A stretch of 64,000 nt of DNA, taken from the NCBI GenBank assembly GCA_964512695.1, contig CAZEJU010000001.1:7803-71802 (forward strand), in the 5' to 3' direction. This DNA comes from an uncultured Gammaproteobacteria bacterium. GTDB taxonomy: Bacteria; Patescibacteriota; Microgenomatia; Levybacterales; UBA12049. A program made the position numbers and the translations under genes. Shown one piece after another: positions 25,114-57,711 of the stretch. Below the pieces are notes generated by a model that searched no databases, was not told the DNA's origin, and worked only from the letters and a program-made list of their open reading frames with translations. Each line of letters begins with the position of its first letter. The first letter of the stretch is position 1.

Positions 25114-26868
25114 ATGGCTAAAGAAGGTGAAATAAAAGGCACATATCAGTTTAGTATAGATGGCCCTCAGCTGACCAGTGACGATATACAGAGGAAGTTC
25201 CCTGGTGTCAAAAATAATGGTCATCTCGGAAAGACTGGTGTAGTACTACATGATACAGCAATTCCTATCGCAGCTATCCGACATCCTCGACTTATACCTA
25301 CGCGGTTAGATGGAATTATACCTGTGTTTGGTGGCCCCCAAACACACAGTAAAATAGAGCATATCCGTATCCGACCAGCTGGTGGCTCAGAAGCGAAAAG
25401 AATAGCAAAAGCAGTCCGTGGAACAACCCCAACACTCGGACCAGAAGCAGAAGCATTTGTACATAACAGAAGAACAGGCAGACTTGTACCTACATTTAAA
25501 GGAAAACAAATTGAAACACAAAAAGCACTGAGAGAAGATGCACTTGGACATACGGGATCGCTTGAAGAACACATCGTAGCATCTGCTAAATTTACAGTTT
25601 TTAGAGCTAATCAAGAGCGCAGACGAGGACGTATCGCAGTTGAAACAAGTGTTCCTATAACCTATGGTGAAGGTAAAGATGCTCGAGATAGTGAAGGTCT
25701 CGCAGGTAGTGAAAATCCATATATTGTGGCTATGACACATCTGTTCCCTGAAAATATGCTCCCTACAGAGAAGCTTGATCCACAAGTTGCAAGCGTTTTA
25801 AATCAATACGCTCTTCGCCATGGGTTTGCGACTATTTCTGATATGACCAGCGCTCTCGGTCTTAACCGCACCTGGCACATGGCTGCAAGCCATCTGAGTC
25901 TTGGTCTACCGCAGGAACAACAACCAGATGGGAAATATATTACTTCTACTGAGATCGCGATAGGAGTTATGAATGTATTTATGAGTGACCTTAATATTTC
26001 GCATATGTTTACTCATGGAACACCTATGCTAGGCGGACAATTAGTAGATGTTCCAGCACGAAATCGTCAATCAGAACATGTGGCCTCAAATCAACCGTTA
26101 CGGGATGTACGACTTGGTGCATTTAAGCATATGTTAGGCACTGCTTATCCTGGCCCGCTTATCGCGAATGAAGAAGATCTCTATGATCGCTGGAGAAAGA
26201 TTGTTATTCCAGGGAAAGCCGCGACTGTAGATCGAGCATCGGCAATTAGTATAGCACCAAATGGAGAAATCTATGCCTCAATGCATGCACGGGCTCGTCT
26301 TCGTGTGGGAGGTGATCCCACAAAACAAACTGTACGAGTCGAATCAGTAGGAGATAGCGCTACACCTTCACGCTACGACTTAATAGCGCGTGACGCGTAT
26401 CTAGTAATGTTATGGAACGGTGCTATGGAGGCAATGGCAAAAGGAAAAACCCCACAAGATTTCTGGGGGGGAAATTATCCAGCAATAACTGACTGGAAAA
26501 AGCAGCAGGAAGCGACATTAGGATTTTCTGTTAATGGACCAGCGAATAGGGAAGCACATGTGCTGATTGAACAAAACCTGGGGTTTTTACGTGATATGAA
26601 AGCTCTCCAACCTACATTAGGTACGTACATCGATTATGTAACAGCACGTATTCGTAATTTTAGTAGACCGACAAAAGCACACACACTCGATGAGTATACA
26701 ACAGATCCATCAGGTAGCATAAGCGAGGTAATTCGACGCATGAAAGAAACCGGATATAAAGATGATGAAATCGTGCGAGCTATTGACACACATCAAACTG
26801 CAGTATCACGAAGAGTTGTTCAAGTTCATGGAGATTTTAAAGCGCTTCTACAAGATGTACAAAAGTAA
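25114..26868 (+). CDS. GCS2 / glutamine-synthetase-fold carboxylate-amine ligase-like protein, paralogue A (584 aa)
   Basis: Shares family landmarks with the other paralogues: GRIAVETSV (G-x-E-x-E-type strand), AASHLSLGLPQ, MHARARLRVGGDPTKQTVRVESVGDSA (R-x-R...E...D, compare HWxxRxx...xExRxxD of GCS2/YbdK). Confidence 0.55.
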   Translation: MAKEGEIKGTYQFSIDGPQLTSDDIQRKFPGVKNNGHLGKTGVVLHDTAIPIAAIRHPRLIPTRLDGIIPVFGGPQTHSKIEHIRIRPAGGSEAKRIAKAVRGTTPTLGPEAEAFVHNRRTGRLVPTFKGKQIETQKALREDALGHTGSLEEHIVASAKFTVFRANQERRRGRIAVETSVPITYGEGKDARDSEGLAGSENPYIVAMTHLFPENMLPTEKLDPQVASVLNQYALRHGFATISDMTSALGLNRTWHMAASHLSLGLPQEQQPDGKYITSTEIAIGVMNVFMSDLNISHMFTHGTPMLGGQLVDVPARNRQSEHVASNQPLRDVRLGAFKHMLGTAYPGPLIANEEDLYDRWRKIVIPGKAATVDRASAISIAPNGEIYASMHARARLRVGGDPTKQTVRVESVGDSATPSRYDLIARDAYLVMLWNGAMEAMAKGKTPQDFWGGNYPAITDWKKQQEATLGFSVNGPANREAHVLIEQNLGFLRDMKALQPTLGTYIDYVTARIRNFSRPTKAHTLDEYTTDPSGSISEVIRRMKETGYKDDEIVRAIDTHQTAVSRRVVQVHGDFKALLQDVQK

Positions 26869-27021
26869 CATTTGACAATATATTTGTAAATATAATTGAC
26901 AATATTACATATCTTTCAGTTAGTAATTATGAGTGCTGCCAATGCCTCTCAATACTTTTCGCACTCACTCACATCCTATAGTTGAATTTCTTCTCATATC
27001 TTTGTTACAATTTACCCCTAT

Positions 27022-28503
27022 ATGTCCCGAATACACGAATTACCAAGTATCCATACACTCTCTTCTACTGATGCTCAAAGATATTGGGATAAGTTACATC
27101 CAATAAAAGTTGTATCTCATGAGAGACCCCTGCAATACGGACATCCAGTTGAAATTCCTCCTAAACTCGCAGGAACTATTGGCAGATCAGCAAATCTCAT
27201 GGAAGAAATTGCGATAGATAGCATTATGCAACAAGGGGCCACTACATGGCTTGGAAATAATGCGGCTTCTTTCGCAGGTGATAGTCTTAACATACAAGAA
27301 ATCAACCACCAGCTCGAAGGTAGGCTTCTTCAAGGCTATCGATTACCTATTAGTTACGATGGAATGATAACAGTCTTTCGTGGAAGACCACATTATACAG
27401 TAGTGGAAGCACAATCTCTAGTTGCTCATGGCCCATGGATTCGGTCTATGCTTCAAGCAGCAGATAAAGATCCAGATGATCCATCATCATGGCAAGGGAA
27501 AGAAAATCCTACCCTCGTAGTTCAACAAATGAAAGACAATTTCGCGAAGGGTGAAGTTATAACAGTATTAGATACCACTCCACTTTCAGGTCCATTTATT
27601 CATGAACAAGTGGGTCTAGCGAAAGCATTAGGAACATCGGGAAGCGTGCCTATTTCTGCGCTTGATATCCAATTTAATCCTGAAATAGGTTATTTTCATT
27701 ACGGTTATGCAGTTGATACTAGAGGCTACCCTATACCAAATGGAAACGGCTTTTTAAGAACATCCGACCGAATACCAATCCGGCATGTGTTAAGCCGTAT
27801 GACGCAACCTGATCTGGATCATTTATACAATCTGGTCCGCGGTAACCCCCAACAAAGTGAACTTATACTCAAGTTCTTACGAGATGAAAAGATTAATTGG
27901 ATCTGGCATCCAGCATGGCAGTCCCTCATCGATAAATCGAGATTACCATATATCTGTAAAAAACTGGAAGAAAGACAAGAAAACGTAACACGCAATCAAT
28001 TTGTTCCGATTTTCGTAGCCGGTGAAACTCCACCCCTAGGAACGTATGTGCGTAAACCCGTAAGCAGCGTCCAAGGTGAAGGAGTAACAATTGTGCAAGT
28101 TAATGGCGTACCTCAACAAGTCGAAGAAGGCACAGTATACCAAAAGTATTTTTACCCGTATCCGTTTTCCATTCCCTTAGACGCAGAAATAGCACGGCAA
28201 TTTCCTGTAACACCCCATGCTCCCAGAAATGTCGCGTCTGGCTTCCAGGAACATTTCGGTTGGGGACAAACCACAACGCCTGCTAGTCTAGAATTATGTT
28301 ATATGGTGCCACCTTGGTGTAAAGGAGAACTTACGGGATATTTTATAGGGAGAGTAGCACCCAGGTATACAGGACCAGATTCAAGAAACATAACCCAAAC
28401 AAACCTCTCAAAAGCGCAAGCTGCGATGTACGAATATATCCGAGATCAGGATCATTGGAAAACACCCTTCGGCTTTTCCCCTGTAACTCTTCAAAAGACT
28501 TAA
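27022..28503 (+). CDS. ATP-grasp-like ligase (glutathionylspermidine-synthase-like flavour), 493 aa
   Basis: IWHPAWQSLIDKSRLPYI (compare the W..l.nKa.l..L motif of GspS-type pre-ATP-grasp proteins) and YVRKPVSSVQGEGVTIV (K-P-x-x-x-x-x-G-x-G-V ATP-grasp strand). Own TTGAAT-18-TACAAT promoter-like signal at 26982..27011. Confidence 0.45.
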   Translation: MSRIHELPSIHTLSSTDAQRYWDKLHPIKVVSHERPLQYGHPVEIPPKLAGTIGRSANLMEEIAIDSIMQQGATTWLGNNAASFAGDSLNIQEINHQLEGRLLQGYRLPISYDGMITVFRGRPHYTVVEAQSLVAHGPWIRSMLQAADKDPDDPSSWQGKENPTLVVQQMKDNFAKGEVITVLDTTPLSGPFIHEQVGLAKALGTSGSVPISALDIQFNPEIGYFHYGYAVDTRGYPIPNGNGFLRTSDRIPIRHVLSRMTQPDLDHLYNLVRGNPQQSELILKFLRDEKINWIWHPAWQSLIDKSRLPYICKKLEERQENVTRNQFVPIFVAGETPPLGTYVRKPVSSVQGEGVTIVQVNGVPQQVEEGTVYQKYFYPYPFSIPLDAEIARQFPVTPHAPRNVASGFQEHFGWGQTTTPASLELCYMVPPWCKGELTGYFIGRVAPRYTGPDSRNITQTNLSKAQAAMYEYIRDQDHWKTPFGFSPVTLQKT

Positions 28504-28528
28504 GCACACATACTCTTAAGTTTAAATA

Positions 28529-28675
28529 TTGACAATTTATAATTGATCTGGTAAGATTATAAGACAAATATGCAACATACGTTTAATTCTATTATTGTCG
28601 TCCTTCTCGTTACCCATTAATTGGGCGGAGGACTCGTGTTAAAAAACGTACCCGCTCAAAGAAGCGGGTTTTTTT
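28529..28675 (+). promoter_or_regulatory. Promoter plus Ile/Val/Leu-codon leader-peptide attenuator
   Basis: TTGACA(28529)-17-TAAGAT. Leader ORF 28570..28620 = MQHTFNSIIVVLLVTH (7 consecutive I/V/L codons). UUGGGCGG (28621) pairs with CCGCUCAA (28652) as antiterminator, versus terminator ACCCGCU-caaaga-AGCGGGU + U7 (28650..28675). Confidence 0.75.
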
Positions 28676-28696
28676 ATGTTTTAAAAGGAGAAATAT

Positions 28697-30556
28697 ATGA
28701 GTTCACATAAAGAATATGCAGGGCAAGCTGCTCTCAAATCCTTAGCTGAAAGATATATTAGAAGGTATGGCTTAAAAGCTGATTTTAATCCCGAAGAGAC
28801 AGGTGGAGTAATTTTCGCTCAAGACGGTACACCACTAAGGCAAGTCCGTGCTCCTTTCTGGAGAGCAGAAAAAGGTGCAAAGGGAACAGGCAGAAAAGAT
28901 ATGCCTAGAGTTTACACTGCTACAAATCCTGACCCGGATAAACCTAACTCAGGATTAGAATTAGAATTCCAAGCTTTCCATGCCATGACAGGAGAAATGG
29001 AACCAGTCATGGATGCAGACCACCCAGTACATCAGGGGTTATTGGAACACAATCGAAAAGCAAAAAATGGACACACTGAAAATAATGGAAATGGACTTGG
29101 AAACGGAAATGGGGTTAATGGATATGTTTTTGTAGAAGACGGCGCTGACTGGGACCATGACTTCCCAACTGGACCTAAAGAAGTAGGATTTAGCCCAGAG
29201 CTAACACGTCATACTTTGGAGGAAAACTTTCCTCCGAATGTAGATTCCGGAACACGAAACAGAGAGACATTATATGGTATTAGCACAGTTGTACAATTAG
29301 CAGAAGCAAATAACACACTTATCTCTCCGTTCTCGACTATACCGCATCGAGATATTACACAAATTGATACGAATCAACATCCATATGTCCAACGCATAGC
29401 GTTCGAACACATGGGTCCCGAAAAAGTTAAACACTTTACAGGTACTTCACTGCAAATTCACGTAGAAATCAAGGATTTAGAGTCAGCTTTACACGCTGCA
29501 AACCGTTGGCAGCTAGTTACACCTATTATGTATGCGGGAACACTTTCAGCACCTTTTATCGCAGGAGAAATAACACCCGATTTACAAGAACGGTATGGTC
29601 AAGTTCCCGACGTGGTTGGCGATCCACTAAAAGAAAGCACATTTGATACTATGACACAAGGACCCCATGAATCATATAGATATTATGGTAGATTAATAGG
29701 ATCACCTTCTGGAGGTGCAATGAGACAGCCTCTACCTGAAACATCTGAAGAATTTTGGTCTGCGGCTAATAATCTTCTAAAATCAGGAGAAAGTCCTTCC
29801 GTGGGTAGAGTAGCAGGACACCATGCAGATTTTCGTATTCGCCCTGACTTGGGACCGTATGGCACAATCGAGTTAGCAGTATTAGATACTGCCGGTGCGC
29901 GCATTCCAAATATCGTAGCCATTCAAGAATTCTCCAGAGCTTTGGGTTGGAAGTTACAGAGACAAGCAGGTAATTGGGAACAAATTATGGAAGATCCTCG
30001 TTTTAAATCGATATTCGGGCAAGCACCTTCTAAGGAAACATTCGAGACTGTTCACTGGAATACTATAGAGGTAGCAAAACATGGAAATAAGGCAATGATT
30101 ACTGGTATGGACGGAGAACAGCATTCTATAGCAGAGTTATGGAGTAAGTTAGTGGAATATGTACAAGAACCTATTGAAGAAACCGGTTATACTGGTTTAC
30201 CGGAAGGTATTATCGAGGTATTAGATAAAGCTTATCAAGACCCATCAGAACTATTTGATGTTTATAAAGACGAAAAAGGAGTTACTTCTGTCAAAGGATT
30301 CTATGAAACCGGAGTCGGAACTATGAGCCAGTGGGCCAGACAACGTGCAGAAGAGTTGAAAGCAAGAGGCTTAGCAGAAAAAGAAGCCATTATCGATACT
30401 ACACTTAATGTAGGCAAAAGCTTTCATGAACATGTAAAGTCAATGACACCCAAAGATCTTAATACTTTATATGTAAGCGCTAACAAGGATGTGGATAAAT
30501 CACCCCAATACAGCGCTAATGGTCAGAATCCATCATACCAAACCACTGCGTCCTAA
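28697..30556 (+). CDS. GCS2-fold carboxylate-amine ligase-like protein, paralogue B (619 aa)
   Basis: SGLELEFQAF, GTSLQIHVEIKD, GHHADFRIRPDLGPYGTIELAVLDTA (close to the GCS2 HWDVRP...T(I/V)E(V/L)RV.D signature). AAAGGAG SD 6 nt upstream. Confidence 0.65.
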   Translation: MSSHKEYAGQAALKSLAERYIRRYGLKADFNPEETGGVIFAQDGTPLRQVRAPFWRAEKGAKGTGRKDMPRVYTATNPDPDKPNSGLELEFQAFHAMTGEMEPVMDADHPVHQGLLEHNRKAKNGHTENNGNGLGNGNGVNGYVFVEDGADWDHDFPTGPKEVGFSPELTRHTLEENFPPNVDSGTRNRETLYGISTVVQLAEANNTLISPFSTIPHRDITQIDTNQHPYVQRIAFEHMGPEKVKHFTGTSLQIHVEIKDLESALHAANRWQLVTPIMYAGTLSAPFIAGEITPDLQERYGQVPDVVGDPLKESTFDTMTQGPHESYRYYGRLIGSPSGGAMRQPLPETSEEFWSAANNLLKSGESPSVGRVAGHHADFRIRPDLGPYGTIELAVLDTAGARIPNIVAIQEFSRALGWKLQRQAGNWEQIMEDPRFKSIFGQAPSKETFETVHWNTIEVAKHGNKAMITGMDGEQHSIAELWSKLVEYVQEPIEETGYTGLPEGIIEVLDKAYQDPSELFDVYKDEKGVTSVKGFYETGVGTMSQWARQRAEELKARGLAEKEAIIDTTLNVGKSFHEHVKSMTPKDLNTLYVSANKDVDKSPQYSANGQNPSYQTTAS

Positions 30557-30590
30557 CAAGTATCAACTATTGTTGTGATACAATAACAAC

Positions 30591-31676
30591 ATGATTCAAC
30601 AAGAAAGGCTTCTAAAAACATTCTTCGATCTTGTTTCAATCGATAGTCCTACAGGTGAAGAAGAACGCATTCGTAACGAACTCTCAAATCGTTTGAAAAA
30701 ACTTGGCGCTGAAACAGTGGAAAAAGATACCTATGGTAACCTCATAGCGAAATTCCATGGTGAAGGTGAACCGCTCATGATTAACTGCCATATGGACACT
30801 GTAGAGCCCGGTAGAGGCATAGTACCAATTATGAAAGGTGATAGAGTAGAAACCGACGGGAAGACAATTCTAGCGGGTGATGCAAAGGCAGGTTTAGCGA
30901 TTATCCTCGAAGCCTTAACTTCACTAAAAGAAGAAAATAAAAAACATGTACCTATCGAAATCGTCTTTACTGTAGAGGAGGAAACTGGACTTTATGGAGC
31001 TGTTAACCTCGACTATTCAAAAGTCTCCGCAAAAAAAGGATTTGTTTTTGATGGTTCAAAAGATCCTTGTACCTTAACCACATCAGCACCGGGATATTAT
31101 AGAGTCGATGTTACAATCATAGGAAGAGCGGCTCATGCGGGAGCCGAACCTGAAAAAGGTATTTCAGCTATTAAAATCGCTTCTGATATTATTACGAAGC
31201 TCGAGGTAGGCAGAATTGATGAAGAAACTACGGCAAACGTCGGTATTATAGAAGGCGGAAGCGCCCGGAATGCAGTACCAGAAAAAGCACATTTTAAGGC
31301 AGAAATTCGAAGTAGAAAGCTAGAAAAGCTTGAAAAACATGCAGGTCATTTCCAAGAAGTTTTTGAGGAAGCGATGAAGAAACATCCTGAAGCGAAAATA
31401 GAGATAGACATGCATTTAGAATTTAATCCATATATTTTCGATGAAAACCATCATGTTATTCAGCTTGCGAGTAAAGCGTTAAGCGAACTAGGACAAACAC
31501 CGAAACTTGCACCTTCGAATGGAGGATCCGATGTCAATATTTTTATTTCACACGATATAGAAACAGTGGCTGTAGGAATTGGCGATTATAATGCTCATAC
31601 AACCCGCGAATACGTCGTCATATCTGAAATAGTGTTAGGAGCTAGACTCTGCGAAAAACTCCTTGAGGCGAAGTAA
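30591..31676 (+). CDS. M20-family metallopeptidase (peptidase T / tripeptidase-like)
   Basis: SPTGEE, CHMDTVEPG, LAGDAKAGLA, EEETGLYGA, RAAHAGAEPEKGISA: M20 metal-ligand motifs. 34 nt after paralogue B, so likely the same operon. Confidence 0.75.
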   Translation: MIQQERLLKTFFDLVSIDSPTGEEERIRNELSNRLKKLGAETVEKDTYGNLIAKFHGEGEPLMINCHMDTVEPGRGIVPIMKGDRVETDGKTILAGDAKAGLAIILEALTSLKEENKKHVPIEIVFTVEEETGLYGAVNLDYSKVSAKKGFVFDGSKDPCTLTTSAPGYYRVDVTIIGRAAHAGAEPEKGISAIKIASDIITKLEVGRIDEETTANVGIIEGGSARNAVPEKAHFKAEIRSRKLEKLEKHAGHFQEVFEEAMKKHPEAKIEIDMHLEFNPYIFDENHHVIQLASKALSELGQTPKLAPSNGGSDVNIFISHDIETVAVGIGDYNAHTTREYVVISEIVLGARLCEKLLEAK

Positions 31677-31759: not shown

Positions 31760-32107
31760 TTGACACGTCATTAACCTCATGGTAGAATTACTATAACATA
31801 CGAATAACAGCGTTGATCCAGTATGGATGGGACTGGGGATTCTCCTTCATTAAAGTTACGCAAGGAGAGCGCTGGGTCTAATCAACCCCGGAGGCGAAAC
31901 CGTAAAAAGATCAGCAACATGTGTCATAGCTGCAGATAAGCACTGATTAAAAGCTGATTCTCGCTGATATAGAGCATGTCATGAATGAGAAGTCCTCCCA
32001 CGCCAAAGCTCCGGAGGATAAAACAAGGTGGCACCGTCCTTAAATAAACGTGGGACCCTTGTAAATAACTACAAAGTAATTTTGTGGTTGTTTACAAGGG
32101 TTTTTTT
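31760..32107 (+). promoter_or_regulatory. Promoter plus T-box-like leader (antiterminator bulge UGGC; specifier not resolved)
   Basis: TTGACA(31760)-17-TAGAAT. ACAAGG-UGGCACC-GUCC..GGAC-CCUUGU (32023..32062) is a T-box-type antiterminator with a 7-nt bulge. Its 3' strand is shared with a 14-bp terminator CCCUUGUAAAUAAC/GUUGUUUACAAGGG + U7 (32056..32107). Confidence 0.6.
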
Positions 32108-32108
32108 A

Positions 32109-33269
32109 ATGGTAAAAACTATGAAAGAAGGAGTTATTATACAAGTTGATCCGAGAATACCAGAGCCATATATAACATATATCCGGCAACGAAATGGGAA
32201 TGTCGGCAGAGATATAGCAGATCACCTTGGCCTACCCTATGTAGGAGACAGTCAGGGAGTACAACGTGCAGCTGATTATTATCCTGTACTTGCCAGAACT
32301 GTCACCAGAGAACATGCAAGAGTATTAGGTGCAGAAAATACAAGAGATTTCTATGGTCTTGCAGTTGAAGATTTAAATGTTGTGGGTAAATCTATACTCC
32401 ATCCTTCTATAAGCAGAAGACATCCTTTATTTCATAGAGAACAATTCGCACGAAAAGTCTTAGGTCAAACCCTTCCTGGTATAACCGGTTTCTCTAAAGA
32501 AGATTTATTAGCAGGGTATGAAAATGGTTACGCTGGATCACTGGATCATGCTTTAGATTACGAGCAGTATGGATTACGTGTTAAACTTCCAAATGAATCC
32601 GACGGCGTAGGACAATTTACTATACAAAGCAAGGATGATCTGGTTACTCTTCTAGAAGCTATTGAGGATAAAGATATCCACGAACAAGGACTGGTTCTGG
32701 AAGCTGATGTACAGAAACCTGAGACTATATCAGTCGGATTCGCGAGAATCGGTGATGAACAATTAAGTTTCATAGCCCAACAAAAAGATGCACGTGTGTT
32801 AGTAGATCATAAGGGCAAAACAATAGAGCAGAATAGATATGGTGGGGCATACGTCGTTGTGGCAAAAGGCCCTTTACAGTTACTATGCCAAGCCACGGAA
32901 GCAACTTCGCGTGAGAGATCTGCTGTAGAAAAAACACTGGCGTTTCATGAAGCCTATCAACGCATCTATGATCCTTTAGCTTCGAGATTAAGTTTCGATG
33001 TCATTTTCGGAGAAGGGAAAAACGGTCTCCCACTTGCAGGAATAAGTGACATTACTGGTAGGCTAGGTGGAACGTGTCCAGCACTCATGCAAGCTGCTGA
33101 AGAGTTCAGGAAAAACCCTTCTATTCAAATGGTAGGAACAGAAGTATCTCTTAATTATACTCCCCATGTACGATTTCCCTATGAAGATGAAGCTAAGGTG
33201 TATGTAGACCACCCAACACTCAGACTTACAGCAAGAGTAAACTCAAAACACAGAAGACTCGCAGCATAG
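32109..33269 (+). CDS. ATP-grasp-like protein (386 aa from the ATG at 32109)
   Basis: GLRVKLPNESDGVGQFTIQSKDDLVTLLE.. and ..GLVLEADVQKPETISVGFARIG.. fit ATP-grasp central-domain strands. I rejected the ORF-track start (32028) because it overlaps the leader terminator. Confidence 0.4.
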   Translation: MVKTMKEGVIIQVDPRIPEPYITYIRQRNGNVGRDIADHLGLPYVGDSQGVQRAADYYPVLARTVTREHARVLGAENTRDFYGLAVEDLNVVGKSILHPSISRRHPLFHREQFARKVLGQTLPGITGFSKEDLLAGYENGYAGSLDHALDYEQYGLRVKLPNESDGVGQFTIQSKDDLVTLLEAIEDKDIHEQGLVLEADVQKPETISVGFARIGDEQLSFIAQQKDARVLVDHKGKTIEQNRYGGAYVVVAKGPLQLLCQATEATSRERSAVEKTLAFHEAYQRIYDPLASRLSFDVIFGEGKNGLPLAGISDITGRLGGTCPALMQAAEEFRKNPSIQMVGTEVSLNYTPHVRFPYEDEAKVYVDHPTLRLTARVNSKHRRLAA

Positions 33270-33278
33270 ACATGAATC

Positions 33279-33422
33279 TTGACATTACACATGGGCTATC
33301 CTATAATCATTTATATGATACGACAAGCAGTAAATTTCTTTTTCTTTTTTACCCCACTCGCGGGGAGGTAATTTCGTGATCACACGAAATACTCTATACC
33401 CCGCATAAGGCGGGGTTTTTTT
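33279..33422 (+). promoter_or_regulatory. Consensus promoter plus Phe-codon leader-peptide attenuator
   Basis: TTGACA(33279)-17-TATAAT(33302). Leader ORF 33315..33371 = MIRQAVNFFFFFTPLAGR, with its ATG only 7 nt after the -10 (leaderless). CCCC/GGGG (33352/33362) 1:2 hairpin. GCGGGG (33360) can pair with CCCCGC (33399), versus terminator CCCCGC-auaag-GCGGGG + U7 (33399..33422). Confidence 0.8.
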
Positions 33423-33435
33423 ATGGAGGAATTCT

Positions 33436-35982: not shown

Positions 35983-36100
35983 GGGTAATATTATATATTA
36001 TAGGATCTAATTCACACAAGCATACGGGTCGGTATTTTCCAGCACAGTTATTTATTAAGCAGTTTGTAATATTAGGAAGACTATTGTAGTTAGTAAAGTG

Positions 36101-36174
36101 TGGGGCCAAGTGGACTTGAACCACTGACCTTTTCAATGTCAATGAAACGCTCTAGCCAACTGAGCTATGGCCCC
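36101..36174 (-). tRNA. tRNA-Val (anticodon GAC)
   Basis: GGGGCCA/UGGCCCC acceptor, A73, D-arm GCUCAGUUGGCUAGAGC, anticodon loop UUGACAU, T-loop UUCAAGU. Confidence 0.85.
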
Positions 36175-37163: not shown

Positions 37164-37296
37164 TTGACGAACTGTATGACTCATGGTATATTGCTCAAAT
37201 ATATGAAATCCACTTTTTTAGTTTGTTGTGTTACAACTCTGCTTTAAGGGGTTGTAGTTATCGTGGAATATGCACCCCGCCAAGCGGGGTTTTTTT
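37164..37296 (+). promoter_or_regulatory. Promoter plus leader-peptide attenuator with tandem Cys codons (specificity tentative)
   Basis: TTGACG(37164)-17-TATATT. Leader ORF 37203..37247 = MKSTFLVCCVTTLL. GGGG (37248) immediately after the stop can pair with CCCC (37275), versus terminator CCCCGC-caa-GCGGGG + U7 (37275..37296), directly abutting the gene's ATG. Confidence 0.55.
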
Positions 37297-38289
37297 ATGA
37301 GAAACTTATTAGAATTAGGAATTTTCGAAACATACGGAAATGGTGGAGGAGCAATTACCAAAGATAGAGTATCTCCTCCTATTTATCCAGTAGATGCTAA
37401 TTTAGGTGAATGGAGGATACTAGCAACTGATCATGAAAGAGAATTCCCGGGCGAGCATCTCGAACGTGCTTTTGAAGTGATAAAGCAATGGCAGGAAGTA
37501 TTTCCTCGGGAAGATACCTGGATTAATCGTGCGTATGGTATTCCGTCACCGATTATTAAACTCGATGCAACAATTACTAATAATGAATTACAGGTGTATG
37601 AAGTAGAAGATAGACCAGCAGGAATGGGTTATAGCGAATTAATAAATCCTGACTTACGAACAAATTTTGCTGATATTGTATCTACTTGGCCAGATTTCCG
37701 AGTCGTCGTTTCTCCTCAAAGATCTGGAAATGACGATCATTTATGGGCAAAGCCAGCAGAAGCAGATTGGCATGGTCTAGTTCTCGTCCGGGCAGAACCG
37801 TCTGAAGAAGAATTCCATGCATTACAGCGAAGATCCATAAGTACTCTGCTTACAGAAGGAGACAAATCGTATGGTGAAAAAATGGGTTTATGGAAAAGAG
37901 TTCATACAGCAGATGAGATAGATTTTTCACAAGGTTTTGTCGTCAAGCCCACCCAAGGAAGCAAAGGGAATGGTGTGTATGTATCTTTACCGAAACAATA
38001 CATGAAAGAACATGGGATCGACCCAGGTAGAAATGGCGTAGCTACTGCAGGGAAAATACGAGGTGTAATCGATACTGCAGCAGCAAATGGAGGAGTCTTC
38101 GTACAACAATATCATCCTCCTATGGAAACAGGTATCCCGACCCATCCCTGGGCAGTAAACCGGTTATTCTTCGGGTATGATATGCAAAATGGAGAATGGA
38201 GATATATAGGGGGAACATGGAATGCTCGAAATAATTTGAAAATTCATGGAGCTAGTGATACATTAACTGGCCCGTTAAAAACGGTATAA
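37297..38289 (+). CDS. ATP-grasp-like ligase (330 aa)
   Basis: GFVVKPTQGSKGNGVYVSL (ATP-grasp K-P-x-x-G-S-x-G-x-G-V strand), ..VFVQQYHPP... Start set at the ATG abutting the terminator U-tract. Confidence 0.5.
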   Translation: MRNLLELGIFETYGNGGGAITKDRVSPPIYPVDANLGEWRILATDHEREFPGEHLERAFEVIKQWQEVFPREDTWINRAYGIPSPIIKLDATITNNELQVYEVEDRPAGMGYSELINPDLRTNFADIVSTWPDFRVVVSPQRSGNDDHLWAKPAEADWHGLVLVRAEPSEEEFHALQRRSISTLLTEGDKSYGEKMGLWKRVHTADEIDFSQGFVVKPTQGSKGNGVYVSLPKQYMKEHGIDPGRNGVATAGKIRGVIDTAAANGGVFVQQYHPPMETGIPTHPWAVNRLFFGYDMQNGEWRYIGGTWNARNNLKIHGASDTLTGPLKTV

Positions 38290-38346: not shown

Positions 38347-38492
38347 TTGACGTCCAAATAGATATAACTCTATAATACAAAGTGTTCTATATGAATATCA
38401 TGAATAACAATGGAGCAGTAAAGAAGAACCTCTCGTAAGAGGGGTCTTTCTGTTGTCTGCACAATAGTACCCCTTACAGAAGGGGTTTTTTT
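38347..38492 (+). promoter_or_regulatory. Promoter plus Asn-codon leader-peptide attenuator
   Basis: TTGACG(38347)-18-TATAAT(38371). Leader ORF 38391..38438 = MNIMNNNGAVKKNLS (5 Asn in 15 aa). CCUCU/AGAGG hairpin over the stop codon. GAGGGG (38439) can pair with CCCCUU (38470), versus terminator CCCCUU-acag-AAGGGG + U7 (38470..38492). Confidence 0.65.
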
Positions 38493-38615
38493 ATGGATTT
38501 TTTGCTGAACCAATAGTTCTACTTAGAAATCCAAATCCTCCAAAAAGCGCTCTTCGAGCCGCAGTTCAAATGAACTAAAGCGGAAAGGAAGCTTAGGAGG
38601 ACAAAGCTTTACATT

Positions 38616-41085: not shown

Positions 41086-41204
41086 ATGCGATATACTTTC
41101 TTCAACATGAGTAAATCAGTTTTCGGAACTACCACTACAACAACCCTTTCCTAAGGGAGGTTGGCGTGGTATTATTTAACAACCTCCTTAATAGGAGGTT
41201 TTTT
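41086..41204 (+). promoter_or_regulatory. Thr-codon leader-peptide attenuator
   Basis: AGGGAG SD, then leader ORF 41086..41154 = MRYTFFNMSKSVFGTTTTTTLS (6 consecutive Thr codons). CCCUU/AAGGG 1:2 hairpin. AAGGGAGGUUG (41153) pairs with CAACCUCCUU (41180), versus terminator CCUCCU-uaau-AGGAGG + U6 (41183..41204). The terminator is nearly identical to that of the Met leader. Confidence 0.8.
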
Positions 41205-43107: not shown

Positions 43108-43197
43108 GTACAAAGATGCAAGGTTCTACCGTAGTTCTCTGTAACATAAGATCTTCGTAACTATGCAACTATTCGCAGGTATGTTATAGTACAGCTT

Positions 43198-44937
43198 ATG
43201 GATAATAACGAAAAATTACAAAACTTACGACACTCAACAGCGCATTTACTTGCGGCTGCAGTCATGGAATTATGGCCTGATACGAAAAGAACAATAGGTC
43301 CTGCGATAGAAACTGGATTTTACTATGACTTCGATTTCGTAAAACCAATCTCAGTGGAAGACCTTCCTAAAATCGAACAAAAAATGCGGGAAATTCTTAA
43401 GTCATGGACAGGATTTATCAAAGAAGAAGTCTCAATAGAAGAAGCAAAAAAGAAAGTAGCAGGAAATGAATATAAACTCGAACTTATAGAAGAATTCGCG
43501 AAAGATAATAAAACCCTTACATTCTATACATCAGGTAATTATGAAGATTTATGTAAAGGCGGTCATGTAGAAAATCCAAAAATGGAAATCGGAGCATTTA
43601 AACTCCTCTCTCTCGCAGGCGCGTACTGGCGGGGAGACGAGAAAAACAAGATGTTAACTCGCATCTATGGTACTGCTTTTCCGACGAAACAAGAATTAGA
43701 AGAGTACCTAACCATGCTTGAGGAAGCGAAAAAACGAGACCATAAAAAATTGGGGAAGGAACTAGATCTCTTTATTTTTTCTCCTCTTGTAGGAGGGGGA
43801 CTTGCACTCTGGACACCCCGGGGGACAATTATTCGTGAAGAATTAGATAATTTTATTTGGCATATAAGAAAAAAGTTCGGTTATCAGAAAGTAACAATTC
43901 CTCATATTACAAAAAAAGATCTCTATGAGACATCCGGACACTGGGAAAAATTTGCAAATGAACTATTTAAAATCCAAACCCGTGAAGAAGATTTATTTGC
44001 GATGAAGCCTATGAATTGTCCTCACCATACACAACTCTACGCTTATAAACCTCGAAGCTACCGAGAGTTGCCACTACGTTATTCAGAAACAACTATGTGC
44101 TATAGAGACGAGCAAAGCGGAGAACTAGCTGGTTTATCCCGAGTTCGTGCTTTTACACAAGACGATGCGCATGTTTTTCTCAGAAAATCGCAAATAGAAG
44201 AAGAATTCTTACGAACTTGGGATATCGTAGATGATTTCTATAAAACTTTTGGCTTTGAGCTGAGAGTAAGGCTCTCACTTCATGATCCTGAACATATGGA
44301 AAAGTATCTAGGCGATGCGGGAATTTGGAAGGATGCTGAATCAAAAATTCGGGCGGTAGCAGAAAAAAGAAAAGCTAATACTTTTGAAGGAATTGGTGAA
44401 GCTGCAATGTATGGACCTAAACTAGACTTTATGACAAAAGATGCTCTTGGACGTGAATGGCAAGTAGCTACCATTCAACTTGATTTAAATCAACCAAAAC
44501 GCTTTGGCTTAACATGTATTAATGAAGAAGGAAAACAAGAAGACATCGTCATGATGCATTGTGCGGTTATGGGATCAATCGAAAGATTTGCTTCGATTTT
44601 AATCGAACATTACGCGGGAGCATTTCCACTCTGGCTTGCGCCAGTTCAAATCGAACTTTTACCAATAGCTGATCGCCATACAGAATATGCCCAATCAGTG
44701 TATAATCAGCTATCTGCAGCCAATATTCGTGTAAATCTTAATACCGAAAAAGCAACACTCCAGGCAAAAATACGTGAGGCTACTTTACAAAAAGTACCAT
44801 TTATGGGTATAATAGGCGATAAGGAAATTGCTGCAGAAGCGATTTCAGTCCGAACAAGAGAAGGAAAAGATGTCGGCCAACAACAGGTTGGTACATTTAT
44901 AACGGAGTTACAGGAAAAAATTGATAAAAAAGAATAG
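43198..44937 (+). CDS. thrS: Threonyl-tRNA synthetase (no N-terminal TGS domain)
   Basis: HSTAHLLAAAV editing-domain motif, class II motifs (..FRDEQSGELAGLSRVRAFTQDDAH.., ..GSIERF..) and an anticodon-binding C-terminus. TATAGT sits 7 nt before the ATG and there is no SD. Confidence 0.9.
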   Translation: MDNNEKLQNLRHSTAHLLAAAVMELWPDTKRTIGPAIETGFYYDFDFVKPISVEDLPKIEQKMREILKSWTGFIKEEVSIEEAKKKVAGNEYKLELIEEFAKDNKTLTFYTSGNYEDLCKGGHVENPKMEIGAFKLLSLAGAYWRGDEKNKMLTRIYGTAFPTKQELEEYLTMLEEAKKRDHKKLGKELDLFIFSPLVGGGLALWTPRGTIIREELDNFIWHIRKKFGYQKVTIPHITKKDLYETSGHWEKFANELFKIQTREEDLFAMKPMNCPHHTQLYAYKPRSYRELPLRYSETTMCYRDEQSGELAGLSRVRAFTQDDAHVFLRKSQIEEEFLRTWDIVDDFYKTFGFELRVRLSLHDPEHMEKYLGDAGIWKDAESKIRAVAEKRKANTFEGIGEAAMYGPKLDFMTKDALGREWQVATIQLDLNQPKRFGLTCINEEGKQEDIVMMHCAVMGSIERFASILIEHYAGAFPLWLAPVQIELLPIADRHTEYAQSVYNQLSAANIRVNLNTEKATLQAKIREATLQKVPFMGIIGDKEIAAEAISVRTREGKDVGQQQVGTFITELQEKIDKKE

Positions 44938-52710: not shown

Positions 52711-54291
52711 TTAGGTTGATTCAACAGCATCAAGTTGAGGAGTTATGATAACCGTGTGCATGGTATCGCTACCAACTTGATATGAATCAAGTTCTTTTAC
52801 TTCGAAATGCACTCCAGATCCATGCGTAAATCTATTTAAAAGTCCCCGGGAAATCAGGCGATATGAAGTATCTCCACGCATTTGAGAAAAAATCGGCAAT
52901 AATTTTCCTTTTTTAGCATACTCTTCAACATATTTTTCTATAAATGCTTGAATTAACTTTATGCCACCCATACCTGTGCTGCTATCAAATCTATCGGTAG
53001 CAAAATCCATTATATATATACAAGATTGATCTGCATATTCAGGGTTATCAGCTATTGATATATCACGCATTTTCCCTTCATACGCTAATAAATACCCTTT
53101 AAGCCTTCCCTCTGATGTTCTATATGCAAAACTCATATTAGGTCTACCTTGTCTTGCGTTATTAATATCTTTCGCAATAAGTGTATTTTCCATCCCGTGC
53201 AAACCTAATAATAATCCATCATTTTCTTTGTATATACGGCTTTCTAGAAAACCTACTTGCAAAGAATCTTCAAATGTAAGAGGCGTTATTTGTTGATCTA
53301 AAGCTGGAGGAGTTTTTTTATCTGTTTGGCTAACATGAACCGTTTTATTTCTTATTTGATGTTTTCTCTTACGTTTTTCTTGAAGACCCAATTCGTATAC
53401 TTCATCATCGATATTATCTGAATAGCTCATCGGTGCTTGGGGAGCGAATGTGTTAGGACGCTTTGGAAGTTGGGTAAGTGCATCAGAATATCCCATACCA
53501 ATCACGACTCTTCCCTTTTCTACTCCAAGTTGATCACCGTATTGATCAACATATTCTTTAAAAAAGTCACTATAGAGTAACTCTAATACTTCATCTTTTC
53601 CCTTAAAATTTGGTGTAATTTCAATATTATCGCAGGCAATTATCCCTTCTTGTTTATCAAGAACGGTTTCTGGAAGGACTTCGTCAAGTGGTGTCTTTTG
53701 CTGTAGTGCTCTCGTGACATTTGGTATTGGTATATTCATATTTTTATCCTTAGTTACGACACTTTGTGCAACTGTCCTTTTCTTTCCATTTTTTTGTACA
53801 ATTTGAATAAGAAGTTGACTACAATTTGGATTAAATGTATACACCGTGTTTTTCCCATCCCCGAACGGCATACAACACGCTGTATCATTGCCTGCTACTG
53901 TTGCTTCGGGATCAGACTTTACTGCTATTTCAACAATATATTTAGTAGTTTGTGCCTCGGATTTCGGTATTCCAAATTCTGGATTATATATAAGACTCTC
54001 AAGTCTGGCTGCAATGTCAGCAGGTAAATCAATCCCAGATTCAAGATAGTCATTAAGCGAAATGTTGGGTATACGGAAAATTGCGGCGATTTCTTTATAG
54101 AGTCTCTGAGGATTACGCGCTTCTCCTGCAATTCGACGAGAACGTGATCCTAATGCTTTTTGAGCAACTTCATTTAAAGCGATAGATTCCTTATAATCTT
54201 CAACTTCATATTCAATTCGCATTGGAGGAAATACTTGTAAAGTATCTATTGTTCCTTCCACTAATGCATCGCGTAAATCTTCCGATGTCAT
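52711..54291 (-). CDS. Hypothetical protein, downstream ORF of a frameshift-linked pair (C-terminal GNAT-like region)
   Basis: 526 aa from the ATG at 54291, but the frame stays open upstream to 54480 with no start codon. The C-terminal ..CIYIMDFATDR..GMGGIKLIQAFIEKYVEEY.. looks acetyltransferase-like. Confidence 0.5.
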   Translation of the reverse strand: MTSEDLRDALVEGTIDTLQVFPPMRIEYEVEDYKESIALNEVAQKALGSRSRRIAGEARNPQRLYKEIAAIFRIPNISLNDYLESGIDLPADIAARLESLIYNPEFGIPKSEAQTTKYIVEIAVKSDPEATVAGNDTACCMPFGDGKNTVYTFNPNCSQLLIQIVQKNGKKRTVAQSVVTKDKNMNIPIPNVTRALQQKTPLDEVLPETVLDKQEGIIACDNIEITPNFKGKDEVLELLYSDFFKEYVDQYGDQLGVEKGRVVIGMGYSDALTQLPKRPNTFAPQAPMSYSDNIDDEVYELGLQEKRKRKHQIRNKTVHVSQTDKKTPPALDQQITPLTFEDSLQVGFLESRIYKENDGLLLGLHGMENTLIAKDINNARQGRPNMSFAYRTSEGRLKGYLLAYEGKMRDISIADNPEYADQSCIYIMDFATDRFDSSTGMGGIKLIQAFIEKYVEEYAKKGKLLPIFSQMRGDTSYRLISRGLLNRFTHGSGVHFEVKELDSYQVGSDTMHTVIITPQLDAVEST

Positions 54292-54419
54292 ATCTAAATT
54301 AGGAAGGCGTGTATAATTAGAAGGTTTTTTTCTATCTTGAATCCAGTCAGGAGTATGGGAAGCTTGAGCATTTAGAACAAGATCGGGATTAAAGGCAAAA
54401 TTTAGTACTGCAGTTTGAT

Positions 54420-55760
54420 CTACTTTACTATTGGGATGAAAGCCGACAGTTGTAACCCATTGATATAATTTTGCTTTTTTTCATCTTTTTTTCCTTCTCT
54501 TCCTAACGTGTTTAATTTTATTAACAAATATTTCTTTTGCAGAAGTTCAGCAAGTTTCGCGAAACGTTTTAGATTATTCCAACTCTCAAAAACTTTTTTC
54601 GGATTTTGAAACTCTGATGCCAGTGCAGAAACTTCTGGTGTATCTTTAGCTTCCTCTAGTAATTGTATGCAAGTCTCCCAATTCGTTAGGATTGTTTGAG
54701 CAATAGGAATAAAAAAGTCATAAGAGGTATATTCAGCTACCTCATCATCATCGCTCAACTTATACCTTCCACGGTCAAGTGAAACTTGATGGAGAATATT
54801 TGCCCAGAATTCATCAGGTGTCAGACCACTGACTTCATATAGCTTTAAGACATCTGGAAATGCATGGATTGCATCATGGGTACTTATATCTTGTTCAAAT
54901 GTTGCTTCATGAGTTTTTGGATCAAGGTGATAGCGTCGTATATATTTAAACATTCTATCATAACCAAATATTTCTCCTGCTGCTCTGAAATTAGTAATGT
55001 CTAACTCCTTCCATTCATTGATCCATGATTCTAAGTTTTTTGATCCACTAGTTATTGCATCAAATGCTCTTTTAAAATCTTCTGAAGATCTTAAGTTAAG
55101 AATGTCAATTCCCGCTTTCTTTACAAACTCTGCATCTATAGGAGATATACCGACTTTATGTGCATAATCAATTTCACTCCTTGTTAAACCAGAAGGTTCA
55201 ATAATTTTATTTAACAAAGCGTAAGCATGATCAAACGGTAAGACATATTCACAAATTGCATAAAGATCTGAGAAGGAATTAACGTTATATGATGCAAAAA
55301 GAGATTGAAGCTGCGGTGGCATATCCTTTTTATATTCTTCTAATAAACCTTTTGAATCGATATCTTTGAACACCTGCATGATCTGACCATTTAGATCGGA
55401 CTCTCTTCCGTAGTTTGTTATTAAGAAATTGGAAAGTACGTTTAAAGGGGGAGGTGTCTGGGAGTGATCATAAATATATTTATAAAAATCAAACCTTTTA
55501 ACTTGTCTAGACCCAGTTCTATTATCATCAGTTAATAATTCATAGGTTTTAGCTGCCTCATCTGGTGTAAGAACTAGGCCATTATATTGAGTTTGTAATT
55601 CTTCTACTAACTTTGTATTATCTTCTCCTTCGACTGTGGAAAATTTTCTAAAAAGATCTTCGAATTTTGCTTTTCTTTCTATTTCAGCAGGATTAACTTC
55701 TACAACACTATTAGTATCTGATATCTGATATCTGATATCTGATATCGACAATATCTTCAT
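54420..55760 (-). CDS. Hypothetical protein, upstream ORF of the frameshift-linked pair (446 aa)
   Basis: Long ORF with no recognised family. It ends 17 codons after the A7 tract. Confidence 0.5.
   Translation of the reverse strand: MKILSISDIRYQISDTNSVVEVNPAEIERKAKFEDLFRKFSTVEGEDNTKLVEELQTQYNGLVLTPDEAAKTYELLTDDNRTGSRQVKRFDFYKYIYDHSQTPPPLNVLSNFLITNYGRESDLNGQIMQVFKDIDSKGLLEEYKKDMPPQLQSLFASYNVNSFSDLYAICEYVLPFDHAYALLNKIIEPSGLTRSEIDYAHKVGISPIDAEFVKKAGIDILNLRSSEDFKRAFDAITSGSKNLESWINEWKELDITNFRAAGEIFGYDRMFKYIRRYHLDPKTHEATFEQDISTHDAIHAFPDVLKLYEVSGLTPDEFWANILHQVSLDRGRYKLSDDDEVAEYTSYDFFIPIAQTILTNWETCIQLLEEAKDTPEVSALASEFQNPKKVFESWNNLKRFAKLAELLQKKYLLIKLNTLGREGKKDEKKQNYINGLQLSAFIPIVK
54474..54480 (-). 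promoter_or_regulatory. Candidate -1 frameshift heptamer A_AAA_AAG
   Basis: Zero-frame codons GAA AAA AAG of the 446-aa ORF. The -1 frame has TGA immediately upstream (54483..54481) and is open from 54480 into the 526-aa ORF. Confidence 0.45.
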
Positions 55761-55810
55761 TCATGCTTTATATTATTACATATTTAAAAACATTTTTTTG
55801 AATCGGTCTA

Positions 55811-56331
55811 TTGACGTACTATAGGGAATATAGTATCATTATTTAACAATTTATAAAGGCTATGACGAAGTCAAAGTAGTTTTCGCAGAGTGACACCAGA
55901 GAGAAGACGTCGCTGCAAGATCTTCCGTATCTTCGAAAATGAATTACGCTTCTGAGCTGTATGCCGAATCCGTTAACCGATGGATAGGCAGAACCGGGTT
56001 CGCACCGTGATAGCGAAAGAATGTGTCGCAGAAGAAGTGGAGCATTCGAAAATAAGCGTTTATCGTATTACTTCGAATCCCTTCATAAGGGATTTTTTAT
56101 TGCTAAGATAAGCGAAACCGAGGTGGTACCACGGAGAAAAATTAAAAGGTAAAAGGTAAAAATTGTATAAGGAAAGATAGTAGTAATTTTACTTTGGACT
56201 TTTGACTTTACACTTTTAACTTTCTTGTTCCGTCCTTGAGAATCATTATTGTTCGAGTGAAGTGAGAGTTATTTTTTACACATAAACTTCTCATTTTGTT
56301 CGAAGAATAGTATTTCTGGGACGGTTTTTTT
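55811..56331 (+). promoter_or_regulatory. Promoter plus T-box leader, probable Tyr (UAC) specifier, with unusually large inserts
   Basis: TTGACG(55811)-17-TATCAT. Stem I base GCUAUGACGAAG/CUUCUGAGC with AGUA...GAA flank and UAC+G at 55945..48. AGAGA box. F-box CCGUUA (55970). T-box GAGGUGGUACCACGG (56119..34). CGAGG-UGGUACC-ACGG pairs with CCGU-CCUUG (56230..38). Terminator arm CCGUCC/GGGACGG + U7 (56230..56331). Confidence 0.6.
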
Positions 56332-57711
56332 ATGAAAGACAATGTACTATCAACTGAGCAAGAACAAGAAAACGAGTTAGAGATGCATGAAGCTTTCCAC
56401 AAGCAAGTACATGCAGTTCTAGAATCTGAAGACAGATTCAGAAAAGCTGAAAGAACAACGAGAATTGGCCTTGAAGCCGAATATAGTGTCATAAATGCAA
56501 CGTGTGATCAAGTAGACCAAACAGTCAGAGATCAAATTATTGAAGACAATAGAGACTTCGCTACCCAAGAGTTAGGGGCAGCACAAATTGAATTACGAAC
56601 TGACCCTATTATCCTTTCTGATGGAGGAATCTGGCAGGTATTTGACCAGATGGCATCTAGAGATGACGCTATAAGGAATGCGGCACATAGACGGGGTGCG
56701 CGTATACTGAGAAGCGGCACAAACCCCTTAGTCGATCTTCATGACATACTAAGAACTGATAAACCAAAATACCGGCAAGTACCTGATTTCCATAATAGAA
56801 AGAGAAAGTTTGGCACAGACACAACAATTGGCAATGGAAAAAGAGTTGATGTAGGAGACGCTGCTGTAGTTGCACTCTTAAACTCTTTGCAGACGAATAT
56901 AGAAGCTGTAGATTTCGCAGATGCCACAGATAAATTAAACAGATCGTTAATGATTGGACCGTATGTTACTGCAGTCAGTTCCGGGGCACGGTATATCGCT
57001 CATCAAGACGCAGGCTTAGCTGATTTACGAATTCTTGCTTGGGAAACGAGTCATGACACGAGAACTGACTCAGAGAGAACACTAGGTGAAAAAACCAGAG
57101 TCGGACTGCCAGCACGATACTATACTGATGTAAAGGATTACTTTACACAAGTGGGATCATATCCATTTATTCTCCATAATCCAGAGGCAGCACTTCAAAT
57201 AGGAATCGGTCTTCATTGGAGAGATACACGGTTAAAAGTAATAGGGGACAGCCTTGTGGTAGAATTCCGTCCCATATCTGCACAGCCAACATCTGCAGAA
57301 AATGTAGCTTCTGCTTTATTTTATACAGGAAGACTACATTGGTCTCAAGCCACAAACGAACCATTGCTGCCGTTTGATAAAGTAGAACATAATAGAAAAC
57401 AAGCACTACACGAAGGCCCTAGAGGGACTATGTACTATACAGAAGACAATAATGTACAGCGATATAAAGCTCCAGAAATCATAAAACTAGAATTAGCGAG
57501 AGCAAAACATGGATTAGAGATGATAGGTTGTCACCCAAAAGATATTGAACCATTCTTTTCAGTTCTAGAAAAAAATCTCGATGAAGGTACACCTGCTGAA
57601 CGGATGCACAATGTCGTATCACGTCTCACAGAAAATGTTTCTGAGAAAGATAAAAAAGAGGCTACACATGATGCTCTTATCACAGCCATTCAAGTCTTAC
57701 AATTCGTATGA
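56332..57711 (+). CDS. GCS2-family carboxylate-amine ligase-like protein, paralogue E (459 aa, the most canonical copy)
   Basis: RIGLEAEYSVIN, GLHWRDTRLKVIGDSLVVEFRPISAQPTSAENVASALFYTG matches the GCS2/YbdK signature closely. Confidence 0.7.
   Translation: MKDNVLSTEQEQENELEMHEAFHKQVHAVLESEDRFRKAERTTRIGLEAEYSVINATCDQVDQTVRDQIIEDNRDFATQELGAAQIELRTDPIILSDGGIWQVFDQMASRDDAIRNAAHRRGARILRSGTNPLVDLHDILRTDKPKYRQVPDFHNRKRKFGTDTTIGNGKRVDVGDAAVVALLNSLQTNIEAVDFADATDKLNRSLMIGPYVTAVSSGARYIAHQDAGLADLRILAWETSHDTRTDSERTLGEKTRVGLPARYYTDVKDYFTQVGSYPFILHNPEAALQIGIGLHWRDTRLKVIGDSLVVEFRPISAQPTSAENVASALFYTGRLHWSQATNEPLLPFDKVEHNRKQALHEGPRGTMYYTEDNNVQRYKAPEIIKLELARAKHGLEMIGCHPKDIEPFFSVLEKNLDEGTPAERMHNVVSRLTENVSEKDKKEATHDALITAIQVLQFV

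Follow-up and report, generated by a model that had tools for sequence, protein, structure and literature searches.

A window of 64,000 nucleotides (nt) from a patescibacterial contig (CAZEJU010000001.1; all positions below are those of the window, unless a comparison locus is named) carries five open reading frames (ORFs) that belong to the GCS2/YbdK superfamily of carboxylate-amine ligases. We call them A584, B619, C566, D594 and E459. The original prediction, an earlier reading of the same DNA, remarked that these genes have distinct leaders. The leaders are real and amino-acid-specific: they comprise predicted Phe, Thr and Ile/Val/Leu attenuators, a probable Tyr T-box and a Met-linked leader, and their pairings with the ligases recur in independent Patescibacteria genomes. 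Our preferred explanation, which we hold to be probable rather than secure, is that the five are paralogous ATP-dependent ligases, that scarcity of one particular amino acid turns on each transcription unit and that together they make up a starvation-induced module for capture or salvage.

Five divergent members of one ligase superfamily

How are the five proteins related? Direct BLASTP links a single pair, A584 and D594, at 26% identity over 544 residues (E=1.6e-38). A word-indexed search returned five homologues of A584 and none of C566. A HMMER profile built from A584, D594 and five relatives matched 97 cluster representatives in 1.84 billion proteins. In a library of that size the A/D profile matched P0103, a protein 36% identical to C566, at E=1.3e-7, and hhalign aligned the A/D profile with C566 itself over 352 columns (E=3.8e-5). 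An alignment of the A/C/D family (48 sequences) was compared with that of the B family by hhalign, the kind of profile-profile comparison that the original prediction had proposed. The two match over 289 columns with 96.4% probability (E=1.1e-9); the match begins in an N-terminal segment common to both and continues past the GxExE strand to the Arg-x-Arg...Glu strands. These BLASTP, hhalign and profile links bear out the claim that the large proteins are homologous to one another and have the GCS2 fold.

E459 is the only one of the five that Pfam recognises, with 29.2 bits against the GCS2 model PF04107 (cutoff 21). Its signature had been described as near-canonical, which overstates the case given that Pfam score, 36 bits in NCBIfam where the cutoffs exceed 370, and no sequence match in the PDB. 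B619 itself has no Pfam match, and its match to the YbdK model TIGR02050 (E=4.5e-6) is below the model cutoff; its family has 12 members in 5.8 billion proteins, 8 of which match PF04107 (best match 4.2e-12). None of the 48 members of the A/C/D family (A584, C566, D594 and 45 relatives) matches a Pfam model, GCS2 included, or an NCBIfam model. Neither A584, C566 and E459 nor the family profiles found a meaningful sequence match in the PDB, and ten long family members of 700-930 amino acids (aa) have no Pfam domain that hints at function. The fold is of the GS/GCS type and is closest to YbdK. We place all five ORFs in the known GCS2/YbdK superfamily of carboxylate-amine ligases, with the B family and E459 as divergent members of GCS2 and the A/C/D family as a rare one that has no Pfam model.

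Do the proteins look like enzymes? Invariant in the 48 A/C/D sequences, which are 16-40% identical, are G109, E111, E113, E134, E141, R374, R395 and E410 (A584 numbering), and H260, R397 and R408 are nearly so. The invariant equivalents in the B family are H255, E257, R380, R382 and E392. In keeping with known GCS and GS structures we take this conserved Glu/His/Arg set to be the metal- and phosphate-binding residues of the superfamily. Because the set is retained, the five proteins look, as far as their sequences can tell, like active enzymes. In E459 one putative metal ligand is swapped for Asn.

The strand motifs quoted in the original prediction are present in E459 (RIGLEAEYSV, aa 44-53; GLHWRDTRLKVIGDSLVVEFRPISAQP, aa 293-319), B619 (SGLELEFQAF, DFRIRP and TIELAVLD), C566 (HGVEVEGTTY, VVRFRM and KTVESIKD) and D594 (LGIGTEPEAF, RVRIRQ and CRIEETG). 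For A584 the picture is mixed: RARLRV and VRVESVGD are there, but the first-strand motif is TLGPEAEAF, which contains G109, E111 and E113, and not GRIAVETSV. The Asn/Gly insert of B619, NNGNGLGNGNGVNG, lies where it was placed, at aa 129-142 (nt 29081-29122); it lengthens a short NGNG motif and is not in the consensus of the 12-member family.

Six GCS2-fold paralogues had been claimed; five were found. No sixth emerged when hidden Markov models of the A/C/D and B families, and phmmer with E459, were run against the 111 window ORFs of at least 80 aa. Two candidates were discarded. The ORF at 2695-3564 has a marginal profile match and is a patatin, and a 493-aa ORF near A584 (g493) has no similarity to the ligases and no significant hhalign match to the A/C/D profile.

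Leaders of the ligase genes

Comparison loci for the homologues, numbered with an L below, were fetched from Logan, NCBI and GTDB genomes. Nearly all of these relatives are Candidatus Roizmanbacteria, Microgenomates or unclassified Patescibacteria metagenome-assembled genomes. The ligase-leader pairings recur in about 20 related loci, and leader type follows ligase subfamily across genomes. For the leaders of the window, a stalled ribosome was modelled in ViennaRNA as a footprint on the leader RNA, taking the minimum-free-energy structure.

The leader peptide of C566 contains an FFFFF run. In its RNA, segments 1 and 3 (CCCC and CCCCGC) and segments 2 and 4 (GCGGGG) repeat in the textbook order CCCC..GCGGGG..CCCCGC..GCGGGG. 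Phe-codon runs lie 5' of all nine C-type genes examined. C-type genes 35-40% identical to C566 follow a Phe-run leader and a terminator in L005, L007, L008, L012, L013 and L016; the C-type genes of L015 and L020 follow a TTT/TTC run that is not in a clean ATG frame.

The leader peptide of D594 contains a TTTTTT run, and in the stall model the antiterminator forms in place of the terminator with one of the six Thr codons in the A site and at no other stall position. Across both strands of the window, no further short ORF has a run of five Phe or of six Thr. D594 is followed by thrS, with no plus-strand terminator predicted between them, and then by infC, rplT and pheST. An orthologue of D594 in L021 (76% identical) has the leader MSKSIIITTTTTTLS and a terminator, and the gene order M20b (an M20 peptidase gene), leader, D, thrS is the same in the window and in L021. 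More distant D-like genes (33-40% identical) have Ile/Leu/Val-rich leaders and head D-C-M20 or D-M20 operons.

Upstream of B619 the leader peptide is rich in Ile, Val and Leu (IIVVLLV), and the stall model gives the antiterminator at one Val codon (Val9). Ile/Leu/Val-rich leaders are found 5' of six of six B-type genes examined, among them those of L001, L005, L006, L007 and L020. The gene M20a starts 35 nt 3' of B619 and is probably co-transcribed with it. This arrangement is common: an M20 gene comes after B-type or D/C-type ligases in the B619 operon of the window and in L001, L005-L008, L010-L017 and L020.

The leader of E459 is probably a T-box. It matches RF00230 over the full length with 58.2 bits (E=5e-12), below the gathering score of 93, and its T-box sequence, GGTGGTACCACG, has one mismatch to the T-box motif. 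The specifier is probably Tyr: UAC is followed by a purine, and tyrS lies downstream. This T-box is atypical. A terminator-like hairpin (about 56075-56098) separates the Stem I-III region from the T-box sequence, and the loops of the antiterminator and terminator have long AT-rich insertions; the score falls below the Rfam threshold probably because of the extra hairpin and these insertions. Metagenome scans with E459 and with an alignment of A-type ligases returned nothing, and the E459 pairing is known from this window alone.

A584 has a structured leader with no leader peptide. The leader (24826-25112) is about 88% identical to that of L003 (292-546), with four compensatory pairs, and the two proteins are 67% identical. 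Homocysteine S-methyltransferase is encoded downstream of the A-type gene in L003. In L004 and L019 the leaders of the A-type genes contain three successive Met residues (MSYKTTNCMMMQTFLGEACCFIKQ and MTIRATCKMMMATFLWEACRFTKK), and in L019 metK lies downstream of the A-type ligase. The A584 leader is possibly a new riboswitch that senses Met or S-adenosylmethionine (SAM). A scan of the genome collection with the A-type alignment returned nothing.

Some further observations concern this leader and its surroundings. It contains k-turn-like and SAM-I-like motifs (GGCAACC ... GGGTGCCA). The gene 5' of A584 in the window encodes a SAM hydroxide adenosyltransferase-like protein. The metK leader of L019 (2430-2570) has SAM-I-like sequence features (TTATCAAGAG ... 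GGTGCCATCCC ... AGATAAG). Permissive Rfam scans of the A584 and D594 leaders, and of that of the DUF3182 gene described below, gave terminator-like chance matches only, with no T-box and no SAM family.

One comparison locus deserves a note on its origin. Among species-representative genomes, L010 (CAYRUR010000006.1) was the nearest relative found for the window, with thrS 72% and the HD-domain protein 60% identical. It is labelled 'uncultured Gammaproteobacteria'; because it has a D-like/M20 operon of the Patescibacteria type, it is probably a mislabelled bin.

The island and its other genes

A584, B619, C566 and D594 share an 18-kb island (25.1-43.1 kb) whose GC fraction is about 0.41, against about 0.36 in the flanking sequence. 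E459 and tyrS lie 13 kb outside it. Besides the GCS2-like ligases, the island holds three genes of ATP-grasp type or probable ATP-grasp type, g493, two PepT-like M20 peptidases, an HD-domain protein, a 280-aa minus-strand ORF and a tRNA-Val. A promoter and terminator scan found, for nearly every island gene, a separate sigma-70-like promoter and, just 5' of the start codon, an intrinsic terminator. Table 1 collects the coordinates.

Table 1. Ligase genes of the window, their leaders and associated genes
Feature	Position	Strand	Length	Description
A584	25114-26868	+	584 aa	GCS2/YbdK-fold carboxylate-amine ligase of a family without a Pfam model; linked to Met
B619	28697-30556	+	619 aa	Divergent GCS2-family ligase; linked to Ile/Leu/Val
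C566	33436-35136	+	566 aa	Ligase of the A/C/D superfamily; linked to Phe
D594	41323-43107	+	594 aa	A/C/D-family ligase; linked to Thr
E459	56332-57711	+	459 aa	Divergent GCS2 ligase; linked to Tyr
A584 leader	24795-25113	+		Sigma-70-like promoter 24795-24823; structured RNA of about 290 nt; intrinsic terminator 25083-25101
B619 leader	28529-28696	+		Promoter 28529-28557; leader peptide MQHTFNSIIVVLLVTH 28570-28620; terminator 28650-28669
C566 leader	33279-33435	+		Consensus promoter 33279-33307 (12/12 matches); leader peptide MIRQAVNFFFFFTPLAGR 33315-33371; terminator 33398-33416
D594 leader	41107-41200	+		Leader peptide MSKSVFGTTTTTTLS 41107-41154; terminator 41181-41200
E459 leader (T-box)	55853-56331	+		UAC then G near 55944-55947; T-box sequence 56122-56133; terminator T-run ends at 56331
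D594-thrS	41323-44937	+		thrS 43198-44937 (Pfam), 90 nt after D594
E459-tyrS	56332-58920	+		tyrS 57724-58920, 12 nt after E459; tRNA-synt_1b 2.9e-67
M20a	30591-31676	+		PepT-like M20 metallopeptidase; TIGR01883 297 bits (cutoff 274)
g493	27022-28503	+	493 aa	No assigned fold; near A-type genes in two genomes
DUF3182	31760-33269	+		Likely start 32109; PF11379 E=8e-48; own promoter 31760-31788; leader of about 310 nt; long terminator hairpin 32055-32101
g339	37164-38289	+		Likely start 37297; promoter; leader ORF MKSTFLVCCVTTLL 37203-37247; terminator 37274-37290
g427-M20b	38347-40966	+		g427 38616-39899 and M20b 39896-40966, overlapping by 4 nt; promoter upstream

Three of these genes point towards the ATP-grasp fold. 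DUF3182 has been placed in that fold (PMC4431377); its leader ends in a terminator hairpin of 20 base pairs, encodes no leader peptide and matches no Rfam family. The DUF3182 gene of L001 (8527-9860) is overlapped on its 5' side by a Trp-repressor-like gene, perhaps a sign of a connection with Trp. The product of g339 is possibly a RimK-like ATP-grasp protein, on a weak match to NCBIfam rimK_rel (E=0.086). The match of g427 to ATP-grasp_3 has E=2.4e-9, and M20b matches TIGR01883, the model of PepT-like M20 peptidases. The g427 leader encodes an Asn-rich peptide, MNIMNNNGAVKKNLS (MNIMNNN..., 38391-38438), and has tandem terminators at 38428-38445 and 38469-38486; its stall model gives the antiterminator only with one of Asn5-7 in the A site. 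The g427-M20b pair shows the same regulatory scheme on a ligase of a different fold. An ATP-grasp ligase beside an M20 enzyme also recalls the pathways that use a LysW-like amino-group carrier; we rejected this candidate, as the C-terminus of a 71-aa ORF in L005 is not acidic and modifying enzymes are absent from the linked genes.

The remaining island gene, g493, has a sub-threshold match to Pfam GSP_synth (E=0.058) and a 37% identical homologue in L003. A profile search of the PDB with it found nothing, and an AF2 model from the single sequence had a predicted local distance difference test score (pLDDT) of 33. The tRNA-Val(GAC) lies on the minus strand at 36100-36174 and adjoins the 280-aa ORF, which has no family match.

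Outside the island, a plus-strand ORF of 467 aa (8122-9525) has only a weak match to the PurD C-domain and may be another ATP-grasp-type ligase; the 645 nt upstream of it hold no attenuator-like leader. Two large minus-strand ORFs of 526 and 446 aa, between pheT/PBP1a and the T-box (52711-55760), have no Pfam match.

Competing readings and known systems

What would such modules do? On the reading we favour, the leader of each ligase unit would sense shortage of one amino acid and switch the unit on when its charged tRNA is scarce: Met (or SAM) for A584, Ile/Val/Leu for B619 with M20a, Phe for C566, Thr for D594 with thrS, and Tyr for E459 with tyrS. Since the leaders are predicted to switch on when that charged tRNA is scarce, the simplest reading is that each paralogue handles its controlling amino acid, and each enzyme would then recognise the amino acid that controls it. 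The claim of one substrate per paralogue thus gains support from regulation, in that a different amino-acid leader precedes each ligase. From the fold and the conserved residues one would expect an ATP-dependent reaction that passes through an acyl-phosphate to an amide; by this route the enzyme would join its amino acid to a partner, yielding a dipeptide-like or gamma-glutamyl-like product. The steady partnership with M20 enzymes suggests that a hydrolytic step follows ligation, and the co-transcribed hydrolase would process the resulting amide. Together the modules would provide starvation-induced capture or salvage in an amino-acid auxotroph.

A more general proposal can be made only tentatively. 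Microgenomates and Roizmanbacteria may have a modular response to amino-acid starvation, hitherto unrecognised, in which a radiation of GCS2-like and ATP-grasp ligases, each specific for one amino acid, is paired with M20 enzymes, each module under its own attenuator, T-box or riboswitch, and in which ATP-driven capture, exchange or release takes the place of amino-acid biosynthesis in these auxotrophs. The A584 leader would then represent a new riboswitch class.

Several observations weigh against the favoured reading. The assignment of substrates is drawn from regulation, and it is a physiological paradox that scarcity of an amino acid should induce the very ligase that uses it up. The A584 leader (24826-25112) matches no Rfam family at E<=10. 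The minimum-free-energy model of the C566 leader is ambiguous and does not reproduce stall-dependent antitermination, and the short ORFs rich in Ile, Leu and Val could in principle encode small hydrophobic peptides, not sensors. Among the proteins, A584 is the only ligase with a structure model, of moderate confidence (pLDDT 71). E459 is linked to the other four at the level of the superfamily only: its hhalign match to the B family has E=1e-3 over 42 columns, and that to the A/C/D profile is not significant. Moreover, at aa 185-192 (56884-56907) it reads SLQTNIEA where the B family has SLQIHVEI, with Asn at the position of the invariant His.

Alternatively, the ligase-fold proteins might run in the hydrolytic direction, like Dop, a depupylase that has the same fold. 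With bound nucleotide and phosphate they would cleave an amide, freeing the scarce amino acid from a conjugate such as a gamma-glutamyl or N-acyl amino acid, and the M20 enzymes would be further means of release. Regulation that is on in starvation suits release better than consumption, and the co-transcribed M20 proteins are hydrolases, of PepT-like or DapE/ArgE-like deacylase types. Yet nearly every protein of the superfamily is a ligase. Unlike PafA, the Pup ligase, and Dop, the ligases here have no Pfam match to Pup_ligase/Dop (PF03136), the structural match to that family is weaker than to YbdK, and the window offers no Pup-like or proteasome context. Sequence does not separate the two directions, and we consider hydrolysis unlikely, if worth serious thought.

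Two other explanations start from gene order. The island might be a biosynthetic cluster for one oligopeptide-like compound, assembled step by step by GCS2-like and ATP-grasp ligases; the leaders would then do no more than match expression to precursor supply. In its 18 kb of raised GC content there are seven genes that code for recognisable or probable ligases, besides g493 and the two peptidases, and linked ATP-grasp and COOH-NH2 ligases often ligate successively (PMC4431377). That every unit of one or two genes is driven by a separate promoter and attenuator, for different amino acids and all on in starvation, is hard to square with a single product; the modules also occur separately elsewhere (D-C-M20, B-M20, and A adjoining metK), and E459 sits with tyrS far from the rest. 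A single cluster therefore strikes us as improbable. More remote still is the idea that the leaders serve the adjacent thrS and tyrS, or are chance short ORFs, and that the ligases have no amino-acid-specific role. D594 and E459 are each placed between a leader and the cognate synthetase gene, and the T-box scores below the Rfam gathering threshold. Yet C-type and B-type genes are not beside cognate synthetases and keep their leader type in nine and six loci, the Phe and Thr runs are unique in the window, and A-type genes have Met-Met-Met leaders. The comparative data largely refute this idea, and we give it very little credence.

How does the capture or salvage system that we favour compare with those already described? 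Like YbdK/GCS2 (PF04107; PDB 1tt4 and 1r8g), the ligases have the GxExE motif in the first strand and the same conserved Glu/His/Arg set, and E459 and most B-family members match its Pfam model. Unlike YbdK, A584, C566 and D594 are 200-250 residues longer, the A/C/D proteins adding an N-terminal beta-rich segment of about 100 residues (common to the B family) and a C-terminal helical region, and the ligases are under predicted amino-acid-specific attenuators. To our knowledge, no such control is known for YbdK.

The leaders themselves follow familiar designs. As in the thrL, pheL and ilvL attenuators of Proteobacteria, a short ORF with a regulatory codon run precedes predicted alternative 1:2, 2:3 and 3:4 pairings and an intrinsic terminator; as in known T-box leaders, that of E459 has a probable specifier and a UGGU-containing bulge, although it differs in its large insertions and low Rfam score. 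Unlike classical attenuators and T-boxes, these leaders stand upstream of ligase and peptidase genes and not of biosynthetic operons. Ribosome-mediated attenuation and T-box control are predicted to act on non-biosynthetic genes in Patescibacteria. The literature yielded no report on leader-peptide attenuation in Patescibacteria and none in which a T-box controls carboxylate-amine ligases. The proposed system of amino-acid-gated ligase paralogues has, as far as we found, not been described before. The substrates proposed above are predictions for a rare, unannotated family (about 97 clusters in 1.84 billion proteins), and the modules are concrete candidates for how ultra-small auxotrophs handle shortage of a single amino acid.

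The closest precedent in organisation is the hmrA/ldmS operon of Staphylococcaceae, which encodes an M20 peptidase and an L-Asp-L-Met ligase under control of an S-box riboswitch or of CymR and CodY (PMC9486568). There too one transcript carries the genes of an M20 hydrolase and an ATP-dependent amino-acid ligase and is derepressed at shortage of the ligase's amino acid, and the authors remark on the same paradox of a ligase induced by scarcity (PMC9486568). LdmS, however, is an ATP-grasp enzyme and handles Met only, whereas the window repeats the scheme for five amino acids or more, by way of leader-peptide attenuators and a T-box. The ligase-plus-M20 paradox of hmrA/ldmS now appears as a multi-amino-acid system.

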